DNA from: an uncultured Alphaproteobacteria bacterium
Lineage (GTDB): Bacteria > Pseudomonadota > Alphaproteobacteria > Rs-D84
DNA: 32,000 nucleotides
Assembly: GCA_963931495.1 (NCBI GenBank)
Contig: OZ007020.1
Location: 240,001-272,000 of the forward strand
Direction: 5' to 3'
Part shown: positions 4,675-18,398 of the stretch, one piece after another
Numbering within the stretch: position 1 is the stretch's first letter
Layout: the number at the start of each line of letters is the position of its first letter
The notes under the pieces: generated by a model
What the model saw: only the letters and a program-made list of their open reading frames with translations
Told to the model about the DNA's origin: nothing
Databases searched by the model: none
Translations under genes and position numbers: made by a program

Positions 4675-4704
4675 GCCTGTGCCACGGCACAGGCGTTTAT
4701 TATT
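4675..4704. terminator. bidirectional rho-independent terminator between tsaE and the ftsA-rpe fusion
   Basis: Stem gcctgtgcc (4675-4683) pairs with ggcacaggc (4686-4694) across a short loop. It is T-rich on the plus side (gtttattatt) and A-rich upstream, which gives T's on the minus strand. Confidence 0.7.
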
Positions 4705-6475
4705 GATTTTTTCGCAACAGGCTTTGTACCGCCAATGGAAAATCTGGACTGTGCGATAAATAAGAACCACTGACCAATAAATCTGCACCAGCCGCCCAGC
4801 ATTGTTGTGCCGTTTTTGGATTTATGCCACCGTCAACAGATATTATATATTTCAAATTATGTTTTTTGCGTGTTGCGGCCAATATTTTTATTTTGTTTAA
4901 GCAAGTGGAATCAAATTCTTGACCGGCCGCACCAGGGGTTACCGCCATTATCATTACTTCATCTATATCCCGTAACACAGGTCGTAATATTGCCGGTGAC
5001 GATTCAGGGTTTAATGCAATGCCGACGCGTCGCGATGCGGCGTGCACTGTTTTTATCGCATCGCGCAGGCCGGATGTGTTTGTTGATAATATTACGGTGT
5101 CGGCACCAGCGGCAACCGCATCTGATGCCCATACGTTTGGGCTTTCTGTCATAAGGTGTACGTGCAAGTGCGCGTTTGTGCGACTGCGTATCTGTTTTAA
5201 TTCGGCGATGCTGCCCGCGATTCTGTCAACATAAAATCCGTCCATTATGTCAACGTGTATCATTGATATACCGCCGGCGTTAAATAATGAATATGTTTCG
5301 GGACGTGTCATATCAAAACACAGTGTACTGGGCATTATCGGAATAAAACGTGTACGCTTTTTACGACGTGGGCGAAACACCGATACGGTGCGCGCAATAA
5401 TGCCGTGTATACGATTGCGGCGCGCAATATATGCATCGCGATGCTTTTGCTCTTTATCCCATATGTATGTTGACAGTGCACGAATGTTCGCATCAGAACG
5501 AATGTTTTGTACCGGGATATTAAATATATTTTCAATGAATTCATCAATACTGGTTATTTCAGAACCACCCCCAGATATAAAAATTTGCTTTATGGCATAT
5601 TTCTGTAAAACGTCAGTTGCGATGTCTTTTATTCGCTGGCATATTTCCAGCATGTACGGCATAATCACATCGTTTACGTCGGCGCGCGAAAATTCGTATT
5701 CTGTGTCCGCCGGGGTGAAACGATCCATTTCTTTGGGTATCAAGTCAGCAACATTACGCTTTATCCGTTCTGCATCATCAAAACTGATATTCAATTTTTC
5801 TGAAATTTCATTTGTTATTGTTGTGCCACCAATGTTTATCTTGGTATACAGTACCGGACCACGGTCAATCCATATTGATACAGACGTATACTGGGCGCCA
5901 AAATCAATAAACATACACGCCATTTTTTGTTGGCGAAAAACAATGTTTTGCAAATACATTGAATCATAAAATCCAATCGGTTGAATGTGTGCATGACGCA
6001 GGTCTGATAAAATATGATTCATCGTTTCGTGCGGATAAAAAATGGCACCGAATACAGATATCAGTTGTCTGTCTGTATGACCAATCGGGGTGAACATGTC
6101 ACGCGCCGTTGGGGTGTCGTATCGCATTGGAATTACATGCATGGGATAGTAATCGTCTGGGGCCGAAATTTGCGAAATTTGATTGCGAATGTCAGTCGTA
6201 CTGATTTTGTGTTCGCCACGCCATACAGTGTTTTTTGCGGTTACAGATAATTTTATATTGCCAAAATTTCCGGTAATATATGCATCGTCAAAATGTGTGC
6301 CAATTTGACGTTCCAATTCATCCGTCACAGAATTTAATGCAAACACCGTATCGTAATTATCAACAGAATATACCGCCGATTTCGCAATGCGTCCATTGCG
6401 TACACGGTGGGCAATACCGCGTATACCGCTGGTACCAATATCCAAGCATAAAAAAGACGAATCCAATAAATTCAT
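4700..6475 (-). CDS. FtsA-like actin-fold domain fused to a ribulose-phosphate 3-epimerase (Rpe) domain
   Basis: Single 591-aa ORF. The N-terminal ~345 aa carry FtsA-like motifs: LDIGTSGIRG, HVIPMRY, FIDFGAQYTSVSIW, INIGGTTITNEI..FDDAERIKR and IFISGGGSEI. A basic linker RPRRKKRTR follows. The C-terminal ~220 aa carry Rpe motifs: IMPSTLCFDM, HVDIMDGFYV, HVHLM, MAVTPGAAGQEF, SVDGG and AGADLLVSGS. Confidence 0.8.
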   Translation of the reverse strand: MNLLDSSFLCLDIGTSGIRGIAHRVRNGRIAKSAVYSVDNYDTVFALNSVTDELERQIGTHFDDAYITGNFGNIKLSVTAKNTVWRGEHKISTTDIRNQISQISAPDDYYPMHVIPMRYDTPTARDMFTPIGHTDRQLISVFGAIFYPHETMNHILSDLRHAHIQPIGFYDSMYLQNIVFRQQKMACMFIDFGAQYTSVSIWIDRGPVLYTKINIGGTTITNEISEKLNISFDDAERIKRNVADLIPKEMDRFTPADTEYEFSRADVNDVIMPYMLEICQRIKDIATDVLQKYAIKQIFISGGGSEITSIDEFIENIFNIPVQNIRSDANIRALSTYIWDKEQKHRDAYIARRNRIHGIIARTVSVFRPRRKKRTRFIPIMPSTLCFDMTRPETYSLFNAGGISMIHVDIMDGFYVDRIAGSIAELKQIRSRTNAHLHVHLMTESPNVWASDAVAAGADTVILSTNTSGLRDAIKTVHAASRRVGIALNPESSPAILRPVLRDIDEVMIMAVTPGAAGQEFDSTCLNKIKILAATRKKHNLKYIISVDGGINPKTAQQCWAAGADLLVSGSYLSHSPDFPLAVQSLLRKNQ

Positions 6476-7219: not shown

Positions 7220-7600
7220 TTAACTGGCACGTAATAAATATCCGCGACCAAACATGCAACGGCGGTACGCCCCAACAGACTTTGACGTTGTATTACGTGG
7301 CACAGACAATAATGCACGTTGGCCCACGTCGCGATATTCGTTTGATTGGAATGTTACCCATAACCCGTCCCAGTCGGGCATAATACTGCTCTGGTTCGGG
7401 GAAAGCAGTTTTGAAATTCGTGAACGTGGCATATATGATGGCCGGTCAATGCCCAGGCACGCCTTGTGATCACGGACAAACTGTTCCATGGTTACAGATT
7501 CATTTTCCCAATTCAGTATTGTTGCATCGTCCAAACTGCCCCGATTTACGGATGCGCATGCAGTCAGTGCCAGCAGTAATACGATGAATTTTATTCTCAT
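7220..7600 (-). CDS. small lipoprotein, unknown function
   Basis: 126 aa with a signal peptide and lipobox LLLALTAC. Confidence 0.6.
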   Translation of the reverse strand: MRIKFIVLLLALTACASVNRGSLDDATILNWENESVTMEQFVRDHKACLGIDRPSYMPRSRISKLLSPNQSSIMPDWDGLWVTFQSNEYRDVGQRALLSVPRNTTSKSVGAYRRCMFGRGYLLRAS

Positions 7601-7677: not shown

Positions 7678-8004
7678 ATGGCAATAACCGTTCAGAATTT
7701 TATAAAACTGGCAAATCTGTATAACCAGATGACAATGGTTATGTCGGCAATCTGTGTGCAAAAGGGCGGAATTGCAATTGAAAACTATGTCGGGCGCTTT
7801 TTTATGGCTGATGTTTTAGAATATATTTCTGAATACGGTCGCAGATTGTTGGACGATAAAAAAATGACTGTGCCCGCAGATGTTGCAAATGTTATACAAA
7901 AATTTCAATCGCAATATGAAATGGTGAAAGATTTAACAACCCCAACCCAAAAACCGTTGTATGAAATGACACTGGAAGAATTTGAACGGGTTATGAATAT
8001 TTGA
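7678..8004 (+). CDS. hypothetical protein, no signal peptide; first gene of the Lol-linked cluster
   Basis: 108-aa ORF with SD aggatgggg upstream of the ATG. No motif recognised. Confidence 0.5.
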   Translation: MAITVQNFIKLANLYNQMTMVMSAICVQKGGIAIENYVGRFFMADVLEYISEYGRRLLDDKKMTVPADVANVIQKFQSQYEMVKDLTTPTQKPLYEMTLEEFERVMNI

Positions 8005-8024: not shown

Positions 8025-9365
8025 ATGAATGCAGTAAAACGTACGCTTTGTGGAATATTTGCAGCAGGGATGTTGGTGCTGGGGGGCGCCTGTACGCGAC
8101 AATCACAGAACCAGGTGCCGCAATATGATACCATCAATGTTGTTGAGAATTTTGTGATTGATGAAAATTCTGTGCCGATTTTTCCAAAAAAGGCCGCATT
8201 GACAACCGATACGGCCCAGCGATTTTCGTTGGATTTGCCCAAAAGATGTACTGTGAATTGGGATAACCAGACAATTGTTTCGGTCGTTCCCGAAGAACCC
8301 ATAGAAATGGTGCGTTTGGGGTTGGGGGATCCGTTGCCTGATTTGTTGGTGTCTGATTATGAATTTCGTGAATTAACGGTCAAAGAAGCCTTGGATAAAT
8401 TACTGGTCGGGACAGACATTTCTGTCATAGAAGATGAAGATTTAACAGAAACAATTTCGGGTTCTGTGTCGTCTGGGAATTTGACTGATACGGTTGAACT
8501 GATGGCCAAAATGGGGCGGGTGTATTATTCGTATGATGCGGTTAACGCAGAAATTCACTTAAATCATCGGGCGAAATGGATGATAAAAATGCCGCGTGAT
8601 GAAAATATAATTATGGCACTGTTGGATGCAATGCACGGGGCGGATATGCGGAATTTGTTGGTTGATTGGCAAGACAAGACAATGGTATTTGAAGGTAATT
8701 ATCAAACAGAACGCGAAGTGGCCAAGATCATTTCAGATATTGCGTCAAAGAAATATATGTTGGCGTGGGATATTGATGTATATCGTGTCTATCCACGTAC
8801 AGATAATCCGATTATATGGATGAATTTATTGCCGGCGTTCGGGGATAATAACATAAAAATGTCTATACCAGGCGTGGTTGGACGTGCACTGGTGGTCAGT
8901 CCGGAAATAAATACAAAAACACTGCAAGAATTTTTATCGCAACAGGCAAATGTTGTTCTGATATCCCAGGGACAGTTTGTTATTCCAAATGGGTGGCAAT
9001 CGCGATTTGATATTGGGCAATGCAGCAAAGAAGAACGTTTGGAAACAGATTTGATAATTGGGGCCACGGGTGTGTATGGCGATTTTGGGGGCAAGGACAA
9101 GATTGATGCAAAAATTGTTTTGCGTACCAGTAACGGTGAATTAACATCATTTAATATTCCGTCTGATGTTGGCGATAACTATGTGATTATTGGTATTCCA
9201 ACACATTCGTTTGTTACAACGCCGGAAACGTTAATCAGCCCATTCGCAGAACTGGTGGTGTTTATGTCGCCACGCATCATTTCTATTGTTGATGCAGATA
9301 CGGCGCCAGATGGTGGGGCGCAGCCATTGGTTGGTGATGCGTTACGGGATTTTTTAAGTAAATAA
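8025..9365 (+). CDS. lipoprotein of unknown function with faint secretin-like N-domain and C-terminal signatures
   Basis: 446 aa with SD aaggtg, and signal peptide plus Cys (AAGMLVLGGAC). ELTVKEALDKLLVGTDISVI and TDTVELMAKMGRVYYSYD resemble STN/secretin N-domains. ANVVLISQGQFVIPNG...DIGQ, DNYVIIGIP and the terminal ELVVFMSPRII resemble secretin C-domain motifs. The family call is unverified. Confidence 0.7.
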   Translation: MNAVKRTLCGIFAAGMLVLGGACTRQSQNQVPQYDTINVVENFVIDENSVPIFPKKAALTTDTAQRFSLDLPKRCTVNWDNQTIVSVVPEEPIEMVRLGLGDPLPDLLVSDYEFRELTVKEALDKLLVGTDISVIEDEDLTETISGSVSSGNLTDTVELMAKMGRVYYSYDAVNAEIHLNHRAKWMIKMPRDENIIMALLDAMHGADMRNLLVDWQDKTMVFEGNYQTEREVAKIISDIASKKYMLAWDIDVYRVYPRTDNPIIWMNLLPAFGDNNIKMSIPGVVGRALVVSPEINTKTLQEFLSQQANVVLISQGQFVIPNGWQSRFDIGQCSKEERLETDLIIGATGVYGDFGGKDKIDAKIVLRTSNGELTSFNIPSDVGDNYVIIGIPTHSFVTTPETLISPFAELVVFMSPRIISIVDADTAPDGGAQPLVGDALRDFLSK

Positions 9366-9380
9366 CAGGAATTTGGTAAT

Positions 9381-10634
9381 ATGTTTTCAAAACTGGAAAG
9401 AAAAGTTGCATTCCGATATCTGGGCGCAAAAAAGCGCGGTTTTGGTTCCGTGATTTCGTGGGTGTCGTTAATCGGTATTATGTTGGGGGTGGGGACCCTG
9501 ATTGTTGTTATGTCGGTTATGGGCGGGTTTCATGACACGTTGCTGTCGCGTATCGTCGGAATGAATGGGCATGTCGTCGTTTATCACCAAGATGGCGCAA
9601 TTGCTGATTATGATTTCTTGATTGATAAAATGAAACAAAACAAGGTTGTTGCCGCCAATGCCACTGGGGTTGTCCCAATCGTAGAGGGCCAGGTGATGGC
9701 CACGGCCGGTGGATATAATACAGGTGCAATAATTCGCGGAATTCGTATGTCTGATTTGGCGGCCAAGACAACCACGGGCACAAAAATTTATGGCAAACCA
9801 CTGGATAAAATTCGTGATGGCGAATTGGTTGGTGGTGCGTCTTTGACCCGGGCGTTGCGTGTTGGTATGGGGGATATGATTTCGCTGGTTTCTGCAAATG
9901 GGGCAACGCCAACACCGTTTGGTTCAATGCCACGGATTATGGCGTATCCGGTTATGTCATCGTTCTTTATGGGAATGTATGAATATGATTCTGGGTACAT
10001 ATTTATGCCATTGGAAACGGCGCAAAAGTATCTGAATATTCAAGATTCTGTGACGCATATTGATTTATTCTTGCGTGATCCCGAAGATACAACAGATGTA
10101 CGTGATGCGTTGGCAAATATGTTGCCAACCGGGTTTGTTGTGCGCGATTGGCGTGAATTGAATCGCGGATTTGTCGGTGCGTTACAGGTGGAATCAAATG
10201 TAATGTTTTTGATATTGTTGCTGATTGTGATTGTGGCGGCATTCAATATTGTTTCCAGTCTGGTTATGCTGGTCAAAGATAAATCCAAAGATATTGCGGT
10301 GTTGCGGACATTCGGTGTATCGCGTCGTTCTATGATGAAAATTTTTGTTTTGTCTGGGACCAGTATCGGGATTTTGGGCGCGTTGTTTGGAACTGTGCTG
10401 GGGGTTGTGATTGCGATTTATATTGAACCAATACGTCAATTCGTTCAATGGGCCACAGGACGTGATTTGTTCCCGGCAGAATTATATTATTTATCAGAAT
10501 TACCGTCAAAATTGGTGCCAGGGGAAGTAATTGGAATTGCGCTGATTGCGGTGCTGTTGGCATTTTTGGCAACGCTGTATCCGGCGTGGAAAGCGGCCAG
10601 CACAGATCCGGTTGACGTATTAAGAAATGAATAA
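9381..10634 (+). CDS. lolC: lipoprotein-releasing ABC transporter permease, LolC/LolE family
   Basis: 417 aa. The N-terminus VAFRYLGAKKRGFGSVISWVSLIGIMLGVGTLIVVMSVMGGF matches the LolC/E pattern. It has a large periplasmic loop and a C-terminal FtsX-type 3-TM bundle. Confidence 0.9.
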   Translation: MFSKLERKVAFRYLGAKKRGFGSVISWVSLIGIMLGVGTLIVVMSVMGGFHDTLLSRIVGMNGHVVVYHQDGAIADYDFLIDKMKQNKVVAANATGVVPIVEGQVMATAGGYNTGAIIRGIRMSDLAAKTTTGTKIYGKPLDKIRDGELVGGASLTRALRVGMGDMISLVSANGATPTPFGSMPRIMAYPVMSSFFMGMYEYDSGYIFMPLETAQKYLNIQDSVTHIDLFLRDPEDTTDVRDALANMLPTGFVVRDWRELNRGFVGALQVESNVMFLILLLIVIVAAFNIVSSLVMLVKDKSKDIAVLRTFGVSRRSMMKIFVLSGTSIGILGALFGTVLGVVIAIYIEPIRQFVQWATGRDLFPAELYYLSELPSKLVPGEVIGIALIAVLLAFLATLYPAWKAASTDPVDVLRNE

Positions 10635-10646
10635 AGGAATCGCGTA

Positions 10647-11357
10647 ATGGCAAATATACTGAATTCTTTGTCTAAAATTTCAAAGGGTGATATTGTGCTG
10701 TCGGTGCGCGATATCAAAAAGACATTTATGGAAGGGGGGCAACCATTACATATTTTACGTGGTGGTGGATTTGATTTGCATCGTGGCGAAATAATTGCGC
10801 TGGTTGGACCGTCGGGCAGTGGTAAGTCTACGTTATTACAATGTGTTGGATTGCTGGATCGGCCAACATCGGGCAGTATTTTGCTGGACGGTGTGCCTGT
10901 TCAAAAAATGGATGATGAAATGCGCACGATGATGCGCCGGCGTAAAATTGGTTTTGTGTATCAGCGTCATAATTTATTGTCTGATTTTACTGCGTTGGAA
11001 AATGTTGTGTTGCCAATGTTGGCAAATGGGGTGGATGAACACAGTGCAAATGCGCGCGCAATGAAATTATTACGCGCGGCCAGTGTTGCGCATCGGGCAT
11101 CACATCTGCCGGGCGAAATGTCGGGTGGCGAACAACAGCGTACGGCCGTGGCACGTGCATTGGCAAACAGCCCAGAAATATTGTTGGCAGATGAACCAAC
11201 CGGCAGTTTGGATCCCACACATGCACAATCTGTGTTTGATTTGTTGTTGGATTTAGTGCGTAAAAATAAAATGGCAATGTTGTTTGTTACACATGATATG
11301 AATCTGGCATCACGGGCGGACAGAAAAATTACTATTCACGACGGCGTCGTTGAATGA
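10647..11357 (+). CDS. lolD: lipoprotein-releasing ABC transporter ATP-binding protein LolD
   Basis: Walker A GPSGSGKST, LolD-like LSDFTALENV, signature MSGGEQQRTAVARAL and Walker B ILLADEPTG. Lies 12 nt after lolC/E. Confidence 0.92.
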   Translation: MANILNSLSKISKGDIVLSVRDIKKTFMEGGQPLHILRGGGFDLHRGEIIALVGPSGSGKSTLLQCVGLLDRPTSGSILLDGVPVQKMDDEMRTMMRRRKIGFVYQRHNLLSDFTALENVVLPMLANGVDEHSANARAMKLLRAASVAHRASHLPGEMSGGEQQRTAVARALANSPEILLADEPTGSLDPTHAQSVFDLLLDLVRKNKMAMLFVTHDMNLASRADRKITIHDGVVE

Positions 11358-11388: not shown

Positions 11389-12078
11389 ATGAAAAAAGCA
11401 GCACCGAAATCAAAACAAAAAACAGCACAGGTTTGTGACTGTTACAGCACTGGTCATAAAATTTGGGGCGCGGTCGCATTGGCCGGATTGTTTTCTTGTG
11501 GATTAATATTGGGGTTAACATATCGTCCAGAACCCGTCCAAGAGGTACGTCTGGATGCGCAACAGTGTGATGCAATTGCAAATGAAATTATCAAGATTAC
11601 AACTGATGGGGCAACCACAGAAAATGTTGATGTGTTAAATGAATTGAATGCGGCGTACTCTGATGGTTGCGCCGGGCGCTTGGTTATAATTGACCGCGTG
11701 GCAAGTCAAAATCTGATGCCGGAAATAATTTCAACTTGTTCACGTATTGAACAATTGTTGACATCACGTCTGCATCCTGAATCTGATACAGATTATTTGG
11801 CACATTTAAGTAATGCGGATACATACAGTACGTTGGCGGAACGTGGATGTGCGGAAAACGCGGATATGTATAAAACAATGGCACTGCGTGAATTGGAAAT
11901 CGCAACGGCGTTAAAGCCAGAAGAAAATATGAATGAATCTGATACAGAAATTGTGATTGATACGTTCAAAAAGTTGGATATGCAACGCGAAGCACAACAA
12001 TTTTTAGATAAAATTCAACAATTAACCAATCCAGCAATTGATTTTATCTTGCAGATGGAACAGGTAATAAATGGATAA
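11389..12078 (+). CDS. membrane-anchored Cys-module protein, paralogue 1 (unknown function)
   Basis: 229 aa with SD ggggaag and an N-terminal TM (IWGAVALAGLFSCGLILGLTY). Two Cys-bracketed modules, and a C-terminal tail shared with 12830-13630. Confidence 0.75.
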   Translation: MKKAAPKSKQKTAQVCDCYSTGHKIWGAVALAGLFSCGLILGLTYRPEPVQEVRLDAQQCDAIANEIIKITTDGATTENVDVLNELNAAYSDGCAGRLVIIDRVASQNLMPEIISTCSRIEQLLTSRLHPESDTDYLAHLSNADTYSTLAERGCAENADMYKTMALRELEIATALKPEENMNESDTEIVIDTFKKLDMQREAQQFLDKIQQLTNPAIDFILQMEQVING

Positions 12079-12081
12079 ATT

Positions 12082-12804
12082 ATGAAAAAATTTACCGCAA
12101 TATTTACAGCGTGTTTGATTGGAATGCCGGCGTTTGGGGCTGATTCTGGGGTCGCGGCGCGTATGGATTGTACAGATATCCAGGCGCGCATTAGTGAATT
12201 ATCGGCAATTGAAAATCCAGATGATGCAACAACAAATGAATTAACCCAGTTACAGGCATCGTATCGCAGTAATTGTGCGCCATCGGCGGCGGGGCGCCGT
12301 ACATCGGGGCGGGCGGCGGCGCTGTCTTATACCGGTCGGTCTGCATCTAATACAACGGGTGGAACGTCGGGGACGGACAGCACAACCCAGTCGGCGTTGA
12401 CAGTGGATTATGCGCTGAATCAGTTTTTAATGGAATTACAGGGTGTATGTCGGAATTTTTCTGCAAATATCGCAACGTTAACGCGTGGTGGGGCAACAAC
12501 CGAAGATTTGCAGCCTTTGATTGATCAATATCATATAAATTGTTTGGGCGAACAGGTTGCAAGTACAACTGATGATGCGGGCGATACGTCTGGGGACGCG
12601 GATGATACGAATGTGGTGGCGGTTGACCCGGCGGTGGCCGCAGAAAATGTTGCCGCCGGTCTGTGTCCTGATGGCAGCAAGCCAAATAAGTTTGGCTGTT
12701 GCGCCGGTGAAACCTTCAAGGATATTGGTAACCTGGAATTTGCATGCTGTCCCGAAGATGGGAATGAATGCTATCCGCCGATAACCATAGAATATGATAT
12801 TTAG
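12082..12804 (+). CDS. secreted Cys-module protein, paralogue 2, with a Cys-rich C-terminus (unknown function)
   Basis: 240 aa, 3 nt after paralogue 1. Has a signal peptide (FTACLIGMPAFGADSG), two Cys-bracketed ATTE/N modules, a low-complexity S/T/G/R linker, and the terminal motif CPDGSKPNKFGCCAGE...FACCPEDGNECYPP. Confidence 0.75.
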   Translation: MKKFTAIFTACLIGMPAFGADSGVAARMDCTDIQARISELSAIENPDDATTNELTQLQASYRSNCAPSAAGRRTSGRAAALSYTGRSASNTTGGTSGTDSTTQSALTVDYALNQFLMELQGVCRNFSANIATLTRGGATTEDLQPLIDQYHINCLGEQVASTTDDAGDTSGDADDTNVVAVDPAVAAENVAAGLCPDGSKPNKFGCCAGETFKDIGNLEFACCPEDGNECYPPITIEYDI

Positions 12805-12829
12805 TTTTTATAAAAAAAGGAGGGTGTGA

Positions 12830-13630
12830 ATGAGCACAAGAAAGTCTGGTAAAAATGATATCAGAAATACACGTCGGGGTACGTGGATATGGTGGGTCGT
12901 CGCCATTATAATATTTGGTGGTTTGGCCGTATGGGGTATTTATGCCGCAGATAAATCGGGTAAAACAGATATGACAGGTGGTTTCCAAGAACCCCAGCCC
13001 CAGGTTGTTGCCACAGAAAATAGTAATGAAATGCGTCCAGCCTGTGCAGTCATAGAAGATATGCTGGTGTTTGGTATCGTCGGTGATGATGATACGGATT
13101 GGCAGAAACAGGCCGACAGTGCACAAATATATTCCGTGTTGGCAGAACGCGGATGTCCAGAAAATGCCCAGTTCTTTAAGGATATGGCACAACGTAAACA
13201 GACAATTGCCGATGGATTGCGCGCAATTATGGACCCAAATAACAGTATTATGACATCTGTGGAATATCTGTATTCTGATGACAGAATTTGCCAAACAATT
13301 GAAAAACGCGTAATTCAAAATATTAATACCAAGGCGTATACATATGACGAATTCTTGGATAATGCGAATACTTATTCGGTTCTGTACCAATTTGGATGCC
13401 ATCCAAATAAACGTGCGTATTCGCGTGCGGCAATTCGCGAACTGGGGGTTGCAATGGCATTGGTGCCACCAGAACATATGACCAAAGAACAAATTGTTAC
13501 AATTATGGAAGTGTATAAACGCATGAAAAATGCAGATGGTGCGCATATGGTTCTGCAACGCTTAAAGGCGCGCGGATATGATATGGACTTCTTGTTAAGT
13601 ATGGAAGAAATCATACACGGCATGGCGTAA
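12830..13630 (+). CDS. membrane-anchored Cys-module protein, paralogue 3 (unknown function)
   Basis: 266 aa with a strong SD aaggaggg and an N-terminal TM (WIWWVVAIIIFGGLAVWGIYAA). Two YS.L...GC.(E/P)N modules, and a C-terminal tail alignable to paralogue 1. Confidence 0.8.
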   Translation: MSTRKSGKNDIRNTRRGTWIWWVVAIIIFGGLAVWGIYAADKSGKTDMTGGFQEPQPQVVATENSNEMRPACAVIEDMLVFGIVGDDDTDWQKQADSAQIYSVLAERGCPENAQFFKDMAQRKQTIADGLRAIMDPNNSIMTSVEYLYSDDRICQTIEKRVIQNINTKAYTYDEFLDNANTYSVLYQFGCHPNKRAYSRAAIRELGVAMALVPPEHMTKEQIVTIMEVYKRMKNADGAHMVLQRLKARGYDMDFLLSMEEIIHGMA

Positions 13631-13905: not shown

Positions 13906-13992
13906 GGGCGTGCGCCGGAGTTGGAGAGCCGGGGCAGACTGTAAATCTGTTGGCTTAAGCCTGAGGTGGTTCGAATCCACCCACTCCCACCA
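13906..13992 (+). tRNA. tRNA-Tyr (anticodon GUA), class II with a long variable arm
   Basis: 87 nt. Acceptor GGGCGTG/CACTCCC (6 of 7 pairs, C4-U69 mismatch), D arm CCGG-AGTTGGAGAG-CCGG, anticodon arm GCAGA-CTGTAAA-TCTGT. Has a 14-nt variable arm, T arm GGTGG-TTCGAAT-CCACC and encoded CCA. Position 8 is C rather than the usual U. Confidence 0.8.
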
Positions 13993-14094
13993 AAATAAAA
14001 ACACCCGCCGAATGGCGGGTGTTTATATTTTGTGACGGAGTGGTGAGATGAGAACCACTGGTTCGACAATGAGTAGATTTGACCGGCAACGCGC
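13965..14094 (+). repeat. repeat copy A: tRNA-Tyr T-arm/3' end, terminator and downstream segment (x+y)
   Basis: 13965-14065 (x) recurs at 15435-15532. 14046-14094 (tail of x plus y) recurs at 17095-17143. Confidence 0.9.
14001..14031. terminator. rho-independent terminator after tRNA-Tyr, usable on both strands
   Basis: Stem acacccgcc / ggcgggtgt with loop gaat, followed by ttatatttt. The minus-strand reading is followed by ttttatttt. Confidence 0.75.
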
Positions 14095-14134
14095 GGTCAA
14101 AACGTCAGGAATGCCCCACAGGGCACTTTTTATA

Positions 14135-14794
14135 TTAACTTTTTTTATTTTTAGATAAAAAAGCAATTATTAACACCAAACTTATACAGAATAAAAAAGA
14201 AATGCCATTAATAACATCATTTGTTCTATCTTTTTCCATAACTGTATAAAATTTTTTATCATCGCTAAAAGGGCATTCTTTTGCTCTTTTTTCAACTGAT
14301 TTACGAACATTTGAATCCCATCTAATTTTAAATTTTTCAAATGTTGAAGCAGTATCATATACTTCTTTTCCACTAATCAATCCTTCACGACAATTTGTGT
14401 TTTTATATGAATCTGCAAAACCTTCTTGAATAATACTATTATTTAGTTCTTTTTTGCATTCTTGTATAACTTCATTTCTATTGTTCTTTTCTATATCTGT
14501 TGAATACATATCTCTTTCTTTATCGGACATATTATAATATTTATCCCAGTCCATTTTATCGGCAATTTTTCCAGTATAACAATCACATACTTTTTCTATC
14601 ATATCTGTTTTCTTTTTATCATCAATTTCAACAGGGATATTTTTTATCATTATGTTTTCACAATGCATAAGAGCAACTGTTCTAAACGCTAATTCTACAG
14701 AAGCAAGTTCAACATCTTTTTTTATAGGTTCTGATTGTGCTTGGGCAAAAAATACACAACTTATAATAATAAAAAATGATATTATTTTTTTCAT
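14135..14794 (-). CDS. islet-encoded exported protein with a C-terminal membrane anchor, Lys/Asp/Cys-rich (unknown function)
   Basis: 219 aa with SD aagga. Has a signal peptide (FFIIISCVFFAQAQS) and a C-terminal TM (ISFLFCISLVLIIAFL). Confidence 0.65.
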   Translation of the reverse strand: MKKIISFFIIISCVFFAQAQSEPIKKDVELASVELAFRTVALMHCENIMIKNIPVEIDDKKKTDMIEKVCDCYTGKIADKMDWDKYYNMSDKERDMYSTDIEKNNRNEVIQECKKELNNSIIQEGFADSYKNTNCREGLISGKEVYDTASTFEKFKIRWDSNVRKSVEKRAKECPFSDDKKFYTVMEKDRTNDVINGISFLFCISLVLIIAFLSKNKKS

Positions 14795-14811
14795 ATTATA
14801 ATCCTTATATA

Positions 14812-15237
14812 TTATTGAACATTTATTTCTGGTTTTTCTTTATCTGGATTATCTGTAAAATCTTTTACACAATATATAAAAGCAATATCTATTAACTTTT
14901 CTCTTGTTTCAGCAATATTAAATACGTTTACAATATGTTTTTTGATTGCATTATAAGTTTTGGGTTCTTTTAAAACATTACCATTGTATAGGTTTATTGT
15001 TGCACATTCACATAATTGATTAACATAAATAACCTTTCCTAATGTGGTTTCTTCTTTTGGTGTATATTTTTTTACACATAAATCTCTTATTTTATCTTCA
15101 TTATCAAAAACATTGTGCACATATTCATTAATATATTTATTTTTATAGTAATTATTAATACATAAATATCCAACAAAAGATATACCCAATCCAAGCAATA
15201 CAACAGATGATATATAAATAAATTTCTTATTTTTCAT
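14812..15237 (-). CDS. islet-encoded small membrane-anchored protein (unknown function)
   Basis: 141 aa with an N-terminal TM (FIYISSVVLLGLGISFVGYLCI). Lies 17 nt upstream of the 14135-14794 ORF on the same strand. Confidence 0.6.
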   Translation of the reverse strand: MKNKKFIYISSVVLLGLGISFVGYLCINNYYKNKYINEYVHNVFDNEDKIRDLCVKKYTPKEETTLGKVIYVNQLCECATINLYNGNVLKEPKTYNAIKKHIVNVFNIAETREKLIDIAFIYCVKDFTDNPDKEKPEINVQ

Positions 15238-15434
15238 TTTGTATTCTTTTTTAATTATTTGAATTCATACCCATTATAATTTAAATATACAAAATGTCAT
15301 TATTAATTTTTTATGTGCTTTTTATTAAAAACACGTTAAAATTATAAAAGTGCTAAGCAAACTGTCTGGCAATTCAATGTTTTTATAGTCAAAAGTGTCA
15401 AGCAAAGAGCAATTTTTGGCTAAAAACCGGCATT

Positions 15435-15532
15435 GGTGGTAATCCACCCACTCCCACCAAAATAAAAATACCCGCCGAATGGCGGGTGTTTATATTTTGT
15501 GACGGAGTGGTGAGATGAGAACCACTGGTTCG
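15435..15532 (+). repeat. repeat copy B: partial tRNA-Tyr 3' half plus terminator (x only)
   Basis: Aligned by eye to 13965-14065. It differs by a 3-nt deletion (tcg of the T-loop) and one substitution (c14002 / t15469). Homology stops after ggttcg. Confidence 0.9.
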
Positions 15533-17258: not shown

Positions 17259-18398
17259 ATGATTAAAATGGGTGCTGGTATGAATAGTGGTGTACTTGTA
17301 AATACAGGTAAAGGTTATAGCGCATTTAAGCCAAGTAAGTTGGCCGATATTGAAAAAGAATTGAATATTTCTGAAATACAATTCTTGATTGAACGTGCTA
17401 ATTTATCGGTTGGTGAATTGCGTGCTATGCAGAAAATGTTGCCTAATCCCGCGCTGTTGATGGAAAGGTATGCGTTAAAGGAGTCTGTATTATCATCGCA
17501 AATAGAAGGGACCCAATCAACGTTGGTAGATGTTTTGGAAAAGGAAAATGACCCGTCGGATAATACAGATATCAGGGAAGTGAAAAATTATTTTAATGCG
17601 TTGAATTTTGGGGTTAATAATTTGCAGCGTGATGATGGGTTGCCACTATCTGGTCGTTTGTTGCGCGAATGTCATAGAATTTTAATGTCTGATGTGCGTG
17701 GTGGGGATAGACTAAAAACGCCTGGTGAATTCAGAACATCGCAAAATTGGATCGGGGGCAGTTGTCCAGCAAATGCCACATATGTTCCGCCTGTTGCAAG
17801 TGATATTGACGAATATATGTCAGATATAGAAAATTATATTCATCACGGCGTGCATCCGAATATGGTCAAAGCCGCTTTGGTGCATTATCAGTTTGAAACC
17901 TTGCATCCGTTTCAGGACGGTAATGGGCGCATCGGACGTTTGTTGATATTGTTGTTTATGATAGATAAGAAAATTTTGAATTCGCCGACTTTATATATCA
18001 GTTTGTATTTGAAAAAAATGCAAAACGAGTATTATGCATCTTTAACAAAAGTGCGTCACAGTGCAGACTTTATTCAATGGATAAAGTTTTTCTTGGATGG
18101 CGTTATCGCCGTTTCAGAGCAGACCATGGCAACAACAAAAAAGATAATAGAATTGGAAAATAAAGATAGAGCACGCCTGAAAACAGGCAGTTTAATAAGG
18201 GCTTTTGATGTTCTGATGAAAAAACCGGTTGTTTCTATCAAAGATATGCAAGAAGAACTGGGGGTTACAAATGCTACGGCGAATTCGTTGATAAAGAAAC
18301 TGGAAGCGGCGCAAATATTAGTTCAAAAAAACAATAAACAACGTTATCGTATCTATGCCTATAAAGACTATCTGGATATTATAGAATCGGGCTTATAA
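17259..18398 (+). CDS. Fic family protein (class II, N-terminal inhibitory motif) with a C-terminal winged-helix domain
   Basis: Fic active-site motif HPFQDGNGRIGR and inhibitory motif SSQIEGT ([S/T]xxxE[G/N]). C-terminal HTH-like region LGVTNATANSLIKKLEAAQILV. The start may be ATG 17268 (see findings). Confidence 0.92.
   Translation: MIKMGAGMNSGVLVNTGKGYSAFKPSKLADIEKELNISEIQFLIERANLSVGELRAMQKMLPNPALLMERYALKESVLSSQIEGTQSTLVDVLEKENDPSDNTDIREVKNYFNALNFGVNNLQRDDGLPLSGRLLRECHRILMSDVRGGDRLKTPGEFRTSQNWIGGSCPANATYVPPVASDIDEYMSDIENYIHHGVHPNMVKAALVHYQFETLHPFQDGNGRIGRLLILLFMIDKKILNSPTLYISLYLKKMQNEYYASLTKVRHSADFIQWIKFFLDGVIAVSEQTMATTKKIIELENKDRARLKTGSLIRAFDVLMKKPVVSIKDMQEELGVTNATANSLIKKLEAAQILVQKNNKQRYRIYAYKDYLDIIESGL

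Follow-up and report, generated by a model that had tools for sequence, protein, structure and literature searches.

A lineage-specific family of cysteine-bracketed, predicted periplasmic proteins encoded beside lolCE-lolD in small-genome gut Alphaproteobacteria

Three consecutive genes, here called P1, P2 and P3, lie directly downstream of lolCE and lolD in a 32,000-nucleotide (nt) stretch of contig OZ007020.1 (assembly GCA_963931495.1, positions 240,001 to 272,000, forward strand) from an uncultured alphaproteobacterium of the Rs-D84 lineage. This whole stretch is referred to as the window, and all positions given below are those of the window. The three genes encode members of an undescribed protein family that is limited to one lineage, the small-genome gut Alphaproteobacteria Rs-D84/Candidatus Enterousia. 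By sequence and profile comparison the three proteins form a mosaic, in which P1 shares one cysteine-bracketed module (v1) with P2, and a second module (v2) together with a C-terminal tail with P3. The triplet is a clade-specific expansion of a two-gene core, a feature that, like the linkage to lolCE-lolD, had been missed in an initial annotation of this DNA. The family is of a familiar general kind, that of lineage-specific, cysteine-stabilised helical envelope proteins, and its members may act as an interaction scaffold or adaptor in the periplasm.

Two module families in three proteins

All three genes are on the forward strand. P1 (11389..12078) encodes 229 amino acids (aa) and consists of a transmembrane (TM) anchor, a v1 module, a v2 module and the tail. 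P2 (12082..12804, 240 aa) is composed of a signal peptide, a v1 module, a disordered linker, a second v1 module, a further linker and a knot of six cysteines, and P3 (12830..13630, 266 aa) of a TM anchor, two v2 modules and the tail. These open reading frames (ORFs), their coordinates and their six cysteine-bracketed segments had already been described in the initial annotation, and both the ORF list and the cysteine positions agree with it. The intergenic gaps are 31 nt from the lolD stop to the P1 start, 3 nt between P1 and P2, and 25 nt between P2 and P3, with a strong AGGAGG upstream of the P3 start. An antisense ORF of 280 aa (12716-13558, reverse strand) that overlaps P3 was taken as a spurious reading frame.

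The v1 modules are C60-C94 of P1 (11566..11670, C-x33-C), and C30-C65 (module a, 12169..12276, C-x34-C) and C123-C154 (module b, 12448..12543, C-x30-C) of P2. The v2 modules are C117-C154 of P1 (11737..11850, C-x36-C), and C72-C109 (module a, 13043..13156, C-x36-C) and C154-C190 (module b, 13289..13399, C-x35-C) of P3, the latter two assigned by BLASTP to P1 and by hhalign. The tail comprises residues 155-229 of P1 (11851..12075) and the corresponding region of P3 (13400..13627). In single-sequence BLASTP, the one v2 segment of P1 aligned with both P3 segments, with E values of 1e-13 for module a and 4e-17 for module b, and the tails aligned as well. The same type of search between P1 and P2 yielded just E 0.09 and 0.22, which are not significant, and P2 and P3 gave no match at all.

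Ortholog-only profiles were built for nine segments and compared all-against-all by hhalign. The v2 profiles matched one another strongly (P1 and P3a, E 2e-24; P1 and P3b, 4e-20; P3a and P3b, 1e-21), as did the tails of P1 and P3 (E 1e-31). Among the v1 profiles, P1 matched P2b with E 2e-7 (probability 93.5%) and P2a with 5e-4, and the two P2 modules matched each other with 8e-9. All comparisons of v1 with v2, in contrast, remained at E 0.016-0.3 over few aligned columns and were not significant, and v1 and v2 are therefore regarded, at the profile level, as two separate module families and not as two variants of one.

The initial annotation had described the proteins as mutual paralogs built from a single duplicated module in two variants. 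The single-module claim was rejected on the v1 against v2 comparison, and paralogy does not extend to P2 and P3, which have nothing in common. Module similarity held under formal alignment within v1 and within v2, and failed between them. The proposed common tail of P1 and P3 was confirmed by both methods. The dense cysteine cluster ending P2 was also confirmed, as six cysteines.

The bracketing cysteine pair was kept in every one of the 793 modules from all homologues collected, namely 335/335 v1 and 458/458 v2 instances. In the alignment of P2 homologues, module a has R27, C30 and L40 as invariant residues, and conservation reaches at least 90% at R62 and C65. P1 has additional cysteines, C16 and C18 in its N-terminus on the cytoplasmic side, and C37 within the hydrophobic helix.

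Predicted structure and topology

The AlphaFold2 (AF2) model of P1, built on an alignment of 82 sequences, had a mean predicted local distance difference test (pLDDT) score of 84.9, with 91-98 over residues 112-210. In the v1 module, helices 57-73 and 77-93 were modelled as a hairpin whose open end carries C60 and C94. The v2 helices (116-125 and 136-152) and the four helices of the tail (155-175, 183-195, 199-212 and 217-228) packed together as a single domain of six antiparallel helices, which in the model is weakly similar to tetratricopeptide repeat (TPR) proteins. A disulfide-stapled hairpin had been put forward in the initial annotation for testing by AlphaFold; v1 was modelled as such a hairpin, with its cysteines at the open end where a disulfide may form, and v2 was found instead as part of the six-helix domain. 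The model of P2 (mean pLDDT 74.4) contains two hairpins, with helices 30-41 and 48-65 in module a and 108-135 and 140-154 in module b, and two disordered linkers (residues 72-103 and 164-175) with pLDDT below 50, both rich in Ser, Thr and Gly.

The six-cysteine knot of P2 (12664..12771) is about 45 aa long and has the pattern C195-x10-CC-x14-CC-x6-C, formed by C195, C206, C207, C222, C223 and C230. The spacing C-x10-CC-x14-CC-x6/7-C is kept in nearly all P2 homologues sampled, and residues G193, L194, C195, G198, P201, N202, G205, C206, C207 and F212 are invariant in their alignment. In the AF2 model the knot reached pLDDT >90 and contains a beta-hairpin (210-216 and 219-224). The knot also stands alone behind a TM helix in proteins of 72-102 aa in related genomes.

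P1 and P3 each begin with a Lys/Arg-rich N-terminus followed by one hydrophobic helix, predicted to be a signal anchor. In P1 this TM helix spans residues 25-43 (11461..11517), which is the top hydropathy window and coincides with the AF2 helix 22-44; it carries the motif LF-x-CG-x3-G, with an invariant G42 and with L31, F35, C37 and G38 conserved to at least 90% in the 82-sequence alignment. The P3 anchor (residues 19-37, 12884..12940) was assigned by hydropathy and by the Arg-rich N-terminus of its homologues. P2 homologues have a cleavable-type Sec signal peptide, with an Ala-rich, AxA-like site at its end. Because of the TM anchors of P1 and P3 and the signal peptide of P2, the v1 and v2 modules are expected in the periplasm. 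Both the N-terminal assignments and the periplasmic orientation had been proposed in the initial annotation; the former are supported by sequence and by the P1 model, and the latter holds as a prediction.

At the other end of P1, the tail closes with the conserved motif P-A-I-D-F-I-L-Q-M-E, in which F219 does not vary among the 82 sequences, and P215, D218, I220 and I227 show at least 90% conservation. Conservation in the family is concentrated in the bracketing cysteines, the knot, the TM helix of the first gene product and the C-terminal motif P-A-I-D-F-I. The conserved TM helix and C-terminal motif argue, at the level of sequence, for specific contacts.

The bracketing cysteines are predicted to form structural disulfides that staple the hairpins, as they are invariant, are suitably placed in the hairpins and belong to modules predicted to be periplasmic.

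Other interpretations of the N-terminal cysteines were discarded. P2 was considered as a lipoprotein via Cys11 ('FTAC'), a residue absent from many homologues, whose signal peptides end in AxA-type sites. C37 of P1 was considered as a lipobox cysteine; about half of the sequences have V, I, L, F or M immediately before it, and the AF2 helix 22-44 runs through it continuously. A lipobox [LVI][ASTVI][GAS]C with conserved cysteine, as in bacterial lipoproteins, was found neither in P1 nor in P2. An anti-sigma (ZAS-like) role for the cytoplasmic Cys/His residues of P1 was also rejected, as the cytoplasmic part is about 24 aa long and the cysteine cluster is absent in distant orthologues.

The juxtamembrane cytoplasmic stretch of P1 (11431-11460, residues 15-24) reads VCDCYSTGHK. 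Orthologues in the clade of the window have one to three cysteines there (e.g. CPINCC) and distant orthologues have none. A similar string, VCDCYTGK, occurs in an unrelated ORF (14135-14794, reverse strand) of an insert further downstream, perhaps by coincidence.

Comparison with known protein families

The initial annotation had not recognised the family, and no characterised domain was found to match it among Pfam and NCBIfam families or among the sequences and folds of PDB. When P1-P3 were scanned against Pfam and NCBIfam, no match reached the curated cutoff. Scans of the isolated knot and of the isolated v2-tail region gave nothing significant, member-by-member Pfam scans of the P1-type (82 sequences) and P2 alignments gave nothing consistent, and family-profile searches of PDB sequences gave no match. 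Faint Pfam matches to Neocarzinostatin (E 0.009), DUF4936 and Lepto_4Cys were below cut-offs, did not recur across members and were dismissed. All homologues in large protein collections are unnamed or annotated as 'hypothetical protein'.

Fold searches with the P2 model found no match in PDB or BFVD. For the P1 model, Foldseek against PDB returned weak TPR and 14-3-3-type matches (E 0.08-0.5), the best target TM-score being 0.55, for the Sgt1 TPR domain, with a query TM-score of about 0.35. These solenoids (Sgt1 TPR, 5an3; plant Tom20, 1zu2) share with P1 an antiparallel hairpin array of about 115 residues, but sequence identity is just 9-15% and a disulfide bracket is not a TPR feature. A TPR_14 match at E ~0.05, below threshold, was found in 2/82 family members, and no TPR sequence signature is present.

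The Hcp proteins of Helicobacter (HcpA, HcpB and HcpC) are exported proteins with disulfide-stapled alpha/alpha hairpin repeats of about 36 aa arranged in a TPR-like solenoid, as in the HcpB and HcpC structures. P1-P3 resemble these Sel1-like repeat (SLR) proteins in being lineage-restricted and fast-evolving, in their predicted export and in their predicted helical hairpins. However, the Hcp bridge is a short C-x7-C, whereas the C-x30-36-C pair of P1-P3 brackets a whole hairpin, and, unlike in Hcp, the modules occur together with a TM anchor, a tail without repeats and a six-cysteine knot. No Sel1 repeat (PF08238) was detected in P1-P3 (hmmscan, E<=1) or in the 82 family members.

YfgM of E. 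coli is an inner-membrane-anchored periplasmic TPR protein, with a single N-in TM helix and a helical periplasmic domain. P1 and P3 have a similar anchored architecture without a sequence match to YfgM-type families. With LolA and LolB, the family shares its setting beside a type VII ABC lipoprotein extractor; P1-P3 have no Pfam or NCBIfam match to them, and the open beta-barrel of LolA/LolB differs from the P1 and P2 models, which are all-alpha apart from the small knot. The knot is reminiscent of granulin in its CC doublets, CCP motif and beta-hairpin core, but it gave no Granulin Pfam match even at E<=1, and its six cysteines are half of the 12-cysteine granulin module. The hairpins also differ from mitochondrial-type CHCH (twin CX9C) proteins, as they have one cysteine per end and no CX9C spacing.

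Distribution, architecture and rate of evolution

Homology searches recovered 103 homologues of P1 and 83 of P2, and for P3 107 representative clusters (50% identity) at E<=1e-3. When one genome of each GTDB species was scanned, P2 relatives were found in at least 126 genomes, and 80 loci were kept. Nearly all of these 80 loci are titled as uncultured Alphaproteobacteria, proteobacteria or Candidatus Enterousia, and come from animal or human gut and rumen. The exceptions by title are one contig of Rickettsiales and one of Muribaculaceae, the latter with the same lolCE-lolD synteny. Phylogenetic mapping had been suggested in the initial annotation; it confined the family to Rs-D84/Candidatus Enterousia-type gut genomes, apart from these odd contig titles. 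Candidatus Enterousia has been placed in the order Rs-D84, with genomes of about 0.75-1.0 Mb and neither a tricarboxylic acid cycle nor a respiratory chain, and a partner-dependent lifestyle has been proposed for it (PMC12306168). Retention of P1-P3-family proteins in genomes of about 0.75-1.0 Mb argues that they matter to the cell.

ORFs were called in 84 fetched loci and classified by hidden Markov models of the modules. The first gene product was found as TM-v2-tail, TM-v2-v2-tail or TM-v1-v2-tail, and the second as signal peptide-v1-knot, signal peptide-v1-v1-knot or signal peptide-v1-knot-knot. Many loci have an additional TM-knot mini-protein of 72-102 aa, and in the clade of the window a further TM-v2-v2-tail gene, P3, occupies the same position. 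Every full locus encodes at least one tail-type and at least one knot-type protein. Since the smallest set seen is a pair of one v2-tail and one v1-knot protein (e.g. in locus L083), the triplet of the window is regarded as a clade-specific expansion of this two-gene core. The window itself is devoid of the mini-knot gene and has just the 25-nt spacer between P2 and P3 (12805-12829), where most loci of the same architecture carry a TM-knot mini-gene of 81-99 aa.

Some first-gene homologues are longer, with 294-344 aa (L039 6956-7990, L044 6955-7989 and L054 7107-7991). They carry a beta-rich insert of about 110 aa with two cysteines, placed after the TM helix and ahead of the first v2 module.

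Median identities to the window were calculated across the 28 loci that share the P1-P2-P3 architecture. They amounted to 67% for P1, 47% for P2 and 54% for P3, compared with 88%, 80% and 83% for three unnamed upstream genes (c126, c108 and c446), 89% for lolCE and 90% for lolD. P1-P3 thus evolve much faster than the neighbouring genes.

Linkage to lolCE-lolD

The genes preceding the triplet were identified as lolCE (9381-10634, forward strand; TIGR02212, 410.7 bits, above the cutoff of 362.45) and lolD (10647-11357, forward strand), the latter with TIGR02211 at 250 bits, below the cutoff and still its best match. In all loci with enough upstream DNA the same block was found, consisting of c126 (on the reverse strand), c108, c446, lolCE and lolD, followed by the family genes. 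In 79 loci lolD directly precedes the first family gene; the gap does not exceed 52 nt in 78/79, and is mostly 4-52 nt. FtsQ is encoded upstream in 66 loci, and tRNA-Gly/Tyr downstream in 44/67.

In the window, no strong terminator-like site was found from lolD to the end of P3, and the strongest such site follows tRNA-Tyr. P1-P3 show the features by which a LolCDE transcription unit is delimited, being co-directional with lolCE-lolD, separated by short gaps, without a strong intervening terminator-like site and conserved in their adjacency. As judged from this arrangement, lolCE-lolD and P1-P3 are probably part of the same operon.

In two more distant relatives (L003 4564-5268 and L004 4483-5265) an extra ORF of 234-260 aa separates lolCE from lolD. 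This ORF is without a signal peptide, Pfam match or family modules, and is absent from the window.

Possible roles of P1-P3

We assign a probability of roughly 45% to the proposal that P1-P3 are lineage-specific periplasmic envelope proteins functioning as an interaction scaffold or adaptor, possibly serving envelope or lipoprotein biogenesis alongside LolCDE. According to this proposal, the family would be assembled from four unrelated building blocks, namely the v1 hairpin, the v2 module with its tail, the knot, and an N-terminal membrane anchor or signal peptide. An ancestral pair would have consisted of an inner-membrane-anchored v2-tail protein and a secreted v1-linker-knot protein. In the clade of the window, duplication and module shuffling of this pair would have given rise to P1 (v1-v2-tail), P2 (v1-v1-knot) and P3 (v2-v2-tail). 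A periplasmic protein-protein interaction scaffold or adaptor would be formed jointly by the anchored TPR-like and the soluble knot proteins. Its conserved contact elements, namely the TM helix of the first gene product, the knot and the C-terminal helix, would lie apart, with variable hairpins and linkers as spacers. Service of the scaffold to envelope or lipoprotein biogenesis beside LolCDE is the least certain step; gene order weakly suggests LolCDE-linked envelope or lipoprotein biogenesis as the single most likely setting.

Several points weigh against this proposal. No experiment or homology ties any of the blocks to a known function, and the TPR-like Foldseek matches of the P1 model are weak (E ~0.1). 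The adjacency to lolD may be inertia, because gene order is generally stable in the lineage. A promoter-like site is found just before P1 (11335-11363), in a region where such sites are no commoner than in shuffled sequence. Parts of a core machine do not usually evolve fast and shuffle their modules, and the fast evolution fits partner-facing or relaxed proteins better. Finally, the usual DsbB-quinone route to periplasmic disulfides may be absent, because the lineage was reported to be without respiratory chains (PMC12306168).

In a second explanation, a less probable one though the best placed among the alternatives, P1-P3 are partner- or host-interaction factors, secreted or surface-exposed and diversified by an arms race, the adjacency to lolCDE being a historical accident. 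The family is 47-67% identical, against 80-90% for its neighbours, and its modules are rampantly gained, lost and shuffled; the insert of about 110 aa in some first-gene homologues also agrees with this explanation. The signal peptide, the disordered Ser/Thr/Gly-rich linkers and the predicted disulfide knot of P2 are typical of extracellular proteins, and the high general synteny weakens guilt by association. The lineage, besides its proposed partner dependence, was reported to encode many unknown membrane proteins (PMC12306168). Topology speaks otherwise: P1- and P3-type proteins are predicted to be held in the inner membrane by an uncleaved helix, and their domains should stay in the periplasm. 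Moreover, no secretion system is encoded within the cluster, and the conservation of TM helix, C-terminal motif and knot suggests internal partners that do not change.

Rather unlikely is a third explanation, that of generic structural or chaperone proteins of the envelope, such as periplasmic TPR-type holdases or spacers, unrelated to Lol and co-transcribed with it in a compact genome. The v2-tail domain is modelled as all-alpha and TPR-like, the architecture recalls that of YfgM, which is likewise anchored in the inner membrane, and the intergenic gaps are tiny, as they commonly are in reduced genomes. Against these stand the lack of any sequence match to the TPR, SLR or YfgM families and the constant co-occurrence of tail-type and knot-type proteins, which suggests a dedicated pair.

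A bolder version of the Lol link, and an improbable one, is that the v2-tail and v1-knot proteins are lipoprotein-sorting components specific to Rs-D84. They would dock on LolCE via the LF-x-CG-x3-G TM helix and replace or supplement LolA/LolB in a genome of about 0.9 Mb. The outer membrane lipoproteins c126 and c446 would then be candidate clients or receptors, with lipoproteins being handed on by the docked proteins.

Very improbable, lastly, are metal-binding or thiol-redox cysteines, which would make the proteins periplasmic metal or redox buffers and not disulfide-stabilised scaffolds: the cysteines are invariant, the knot has CC doublets, P1 orthologues have the additional juxtamembrane cysteine cluster on the cytoplasmic side, and periplasmic cysteines may stay reduced in an anaerobic, non-respiring lineage (PMC12306168), but with two cysteines per helical module, spaced by about 35 residues where the hairpin opens, the geometry is that of a staple and differs from a chelating CxxC site, the P1 and P2 alignments show no conserved His, Met or Asp ligands nearby, and there is no thioredoxin fold.

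Neighbouring genes and the variable downstream region

The conserved block upstream of lolCE begins with c126, a small unnamed lipoprotein (7220-7600, reverse strand), followed by c108 (7678-8004, forward strand), which is unnamed and has no signal peptide, and by c446 (8025-9365, forward strand), an unnamed protein with a lipoprotein-type N-terminus. None of the three had a match in Pfam, NCBIfam or PDB. The C-terminus of c446 looked secretin-like, and a divergent secretin was considered; it found no support in Pfam, NCBIfam or in single-sequence and profile searches of PDB, and homology search returned unnamed close relatives alone. Further upstream (4700-6475, reverse strand) a 591-aa fusion protein combines a complete ribulose-phosphate 3-epimerase domain with an actin-like domain of FtsA type, and relatives carry a corresponding 592-aa FtsA-type/epimerase fusion beside ftsQ.

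Downstream of the triplet, a direct repeat of 99 nt (96% identical; 13967-14065 and 15434-15532), made up of the 3' end of tRNA-Tyr and a strong hairpin terminator, flanks an insert at 14066-15433. This 1.47-kb insert has a low GC content (28%) and contains two ORFs on the reverse strand, of 219 aa (14135-14794) and 141 aa (14812-15237), neither of which had a family match or a homologue in the 84 related loci. The insert looks like the remnant of a tRNA-targeted island without an integrase. A Fic/DOC-family protein with a C-terminal helix-turn-helix is encoded at 17259-18398 (forward strand), and nothing equivalent was found in the 84 related loci, so that the sequence beyond tRNA-Tyr appears variable. 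The unassigned ORFs of the window were inspected for CxxC motifs, as possible dsb genes, and no such motif was seen in any of them.

Implications

At present P1-P3 constitute a well-delimited orphan family and not a new mechanism. Three domains, the v1 hairpin, the TPR-like v2-tail domain and the six-cysteine knot, are new to Pfam, NCBIfam and PDB and could enter domain databases. The gene set is tied physically to an essential lipoprotein extractor, and yet its rate of evolution and reshuffling is several times that of its neighbours. Rs-D84/Candidatus Enterousia are widespread uncultured gut bacteria with genomes of less than 1 Mb that are possibly partner-dependent (PMC12306168), and a set present in every surveyed species offers a good entry point to how the envelope is built and used in these cells. 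The Lol link, if true, would bear on how bacteria without LolB complete lipoprotein sorting.

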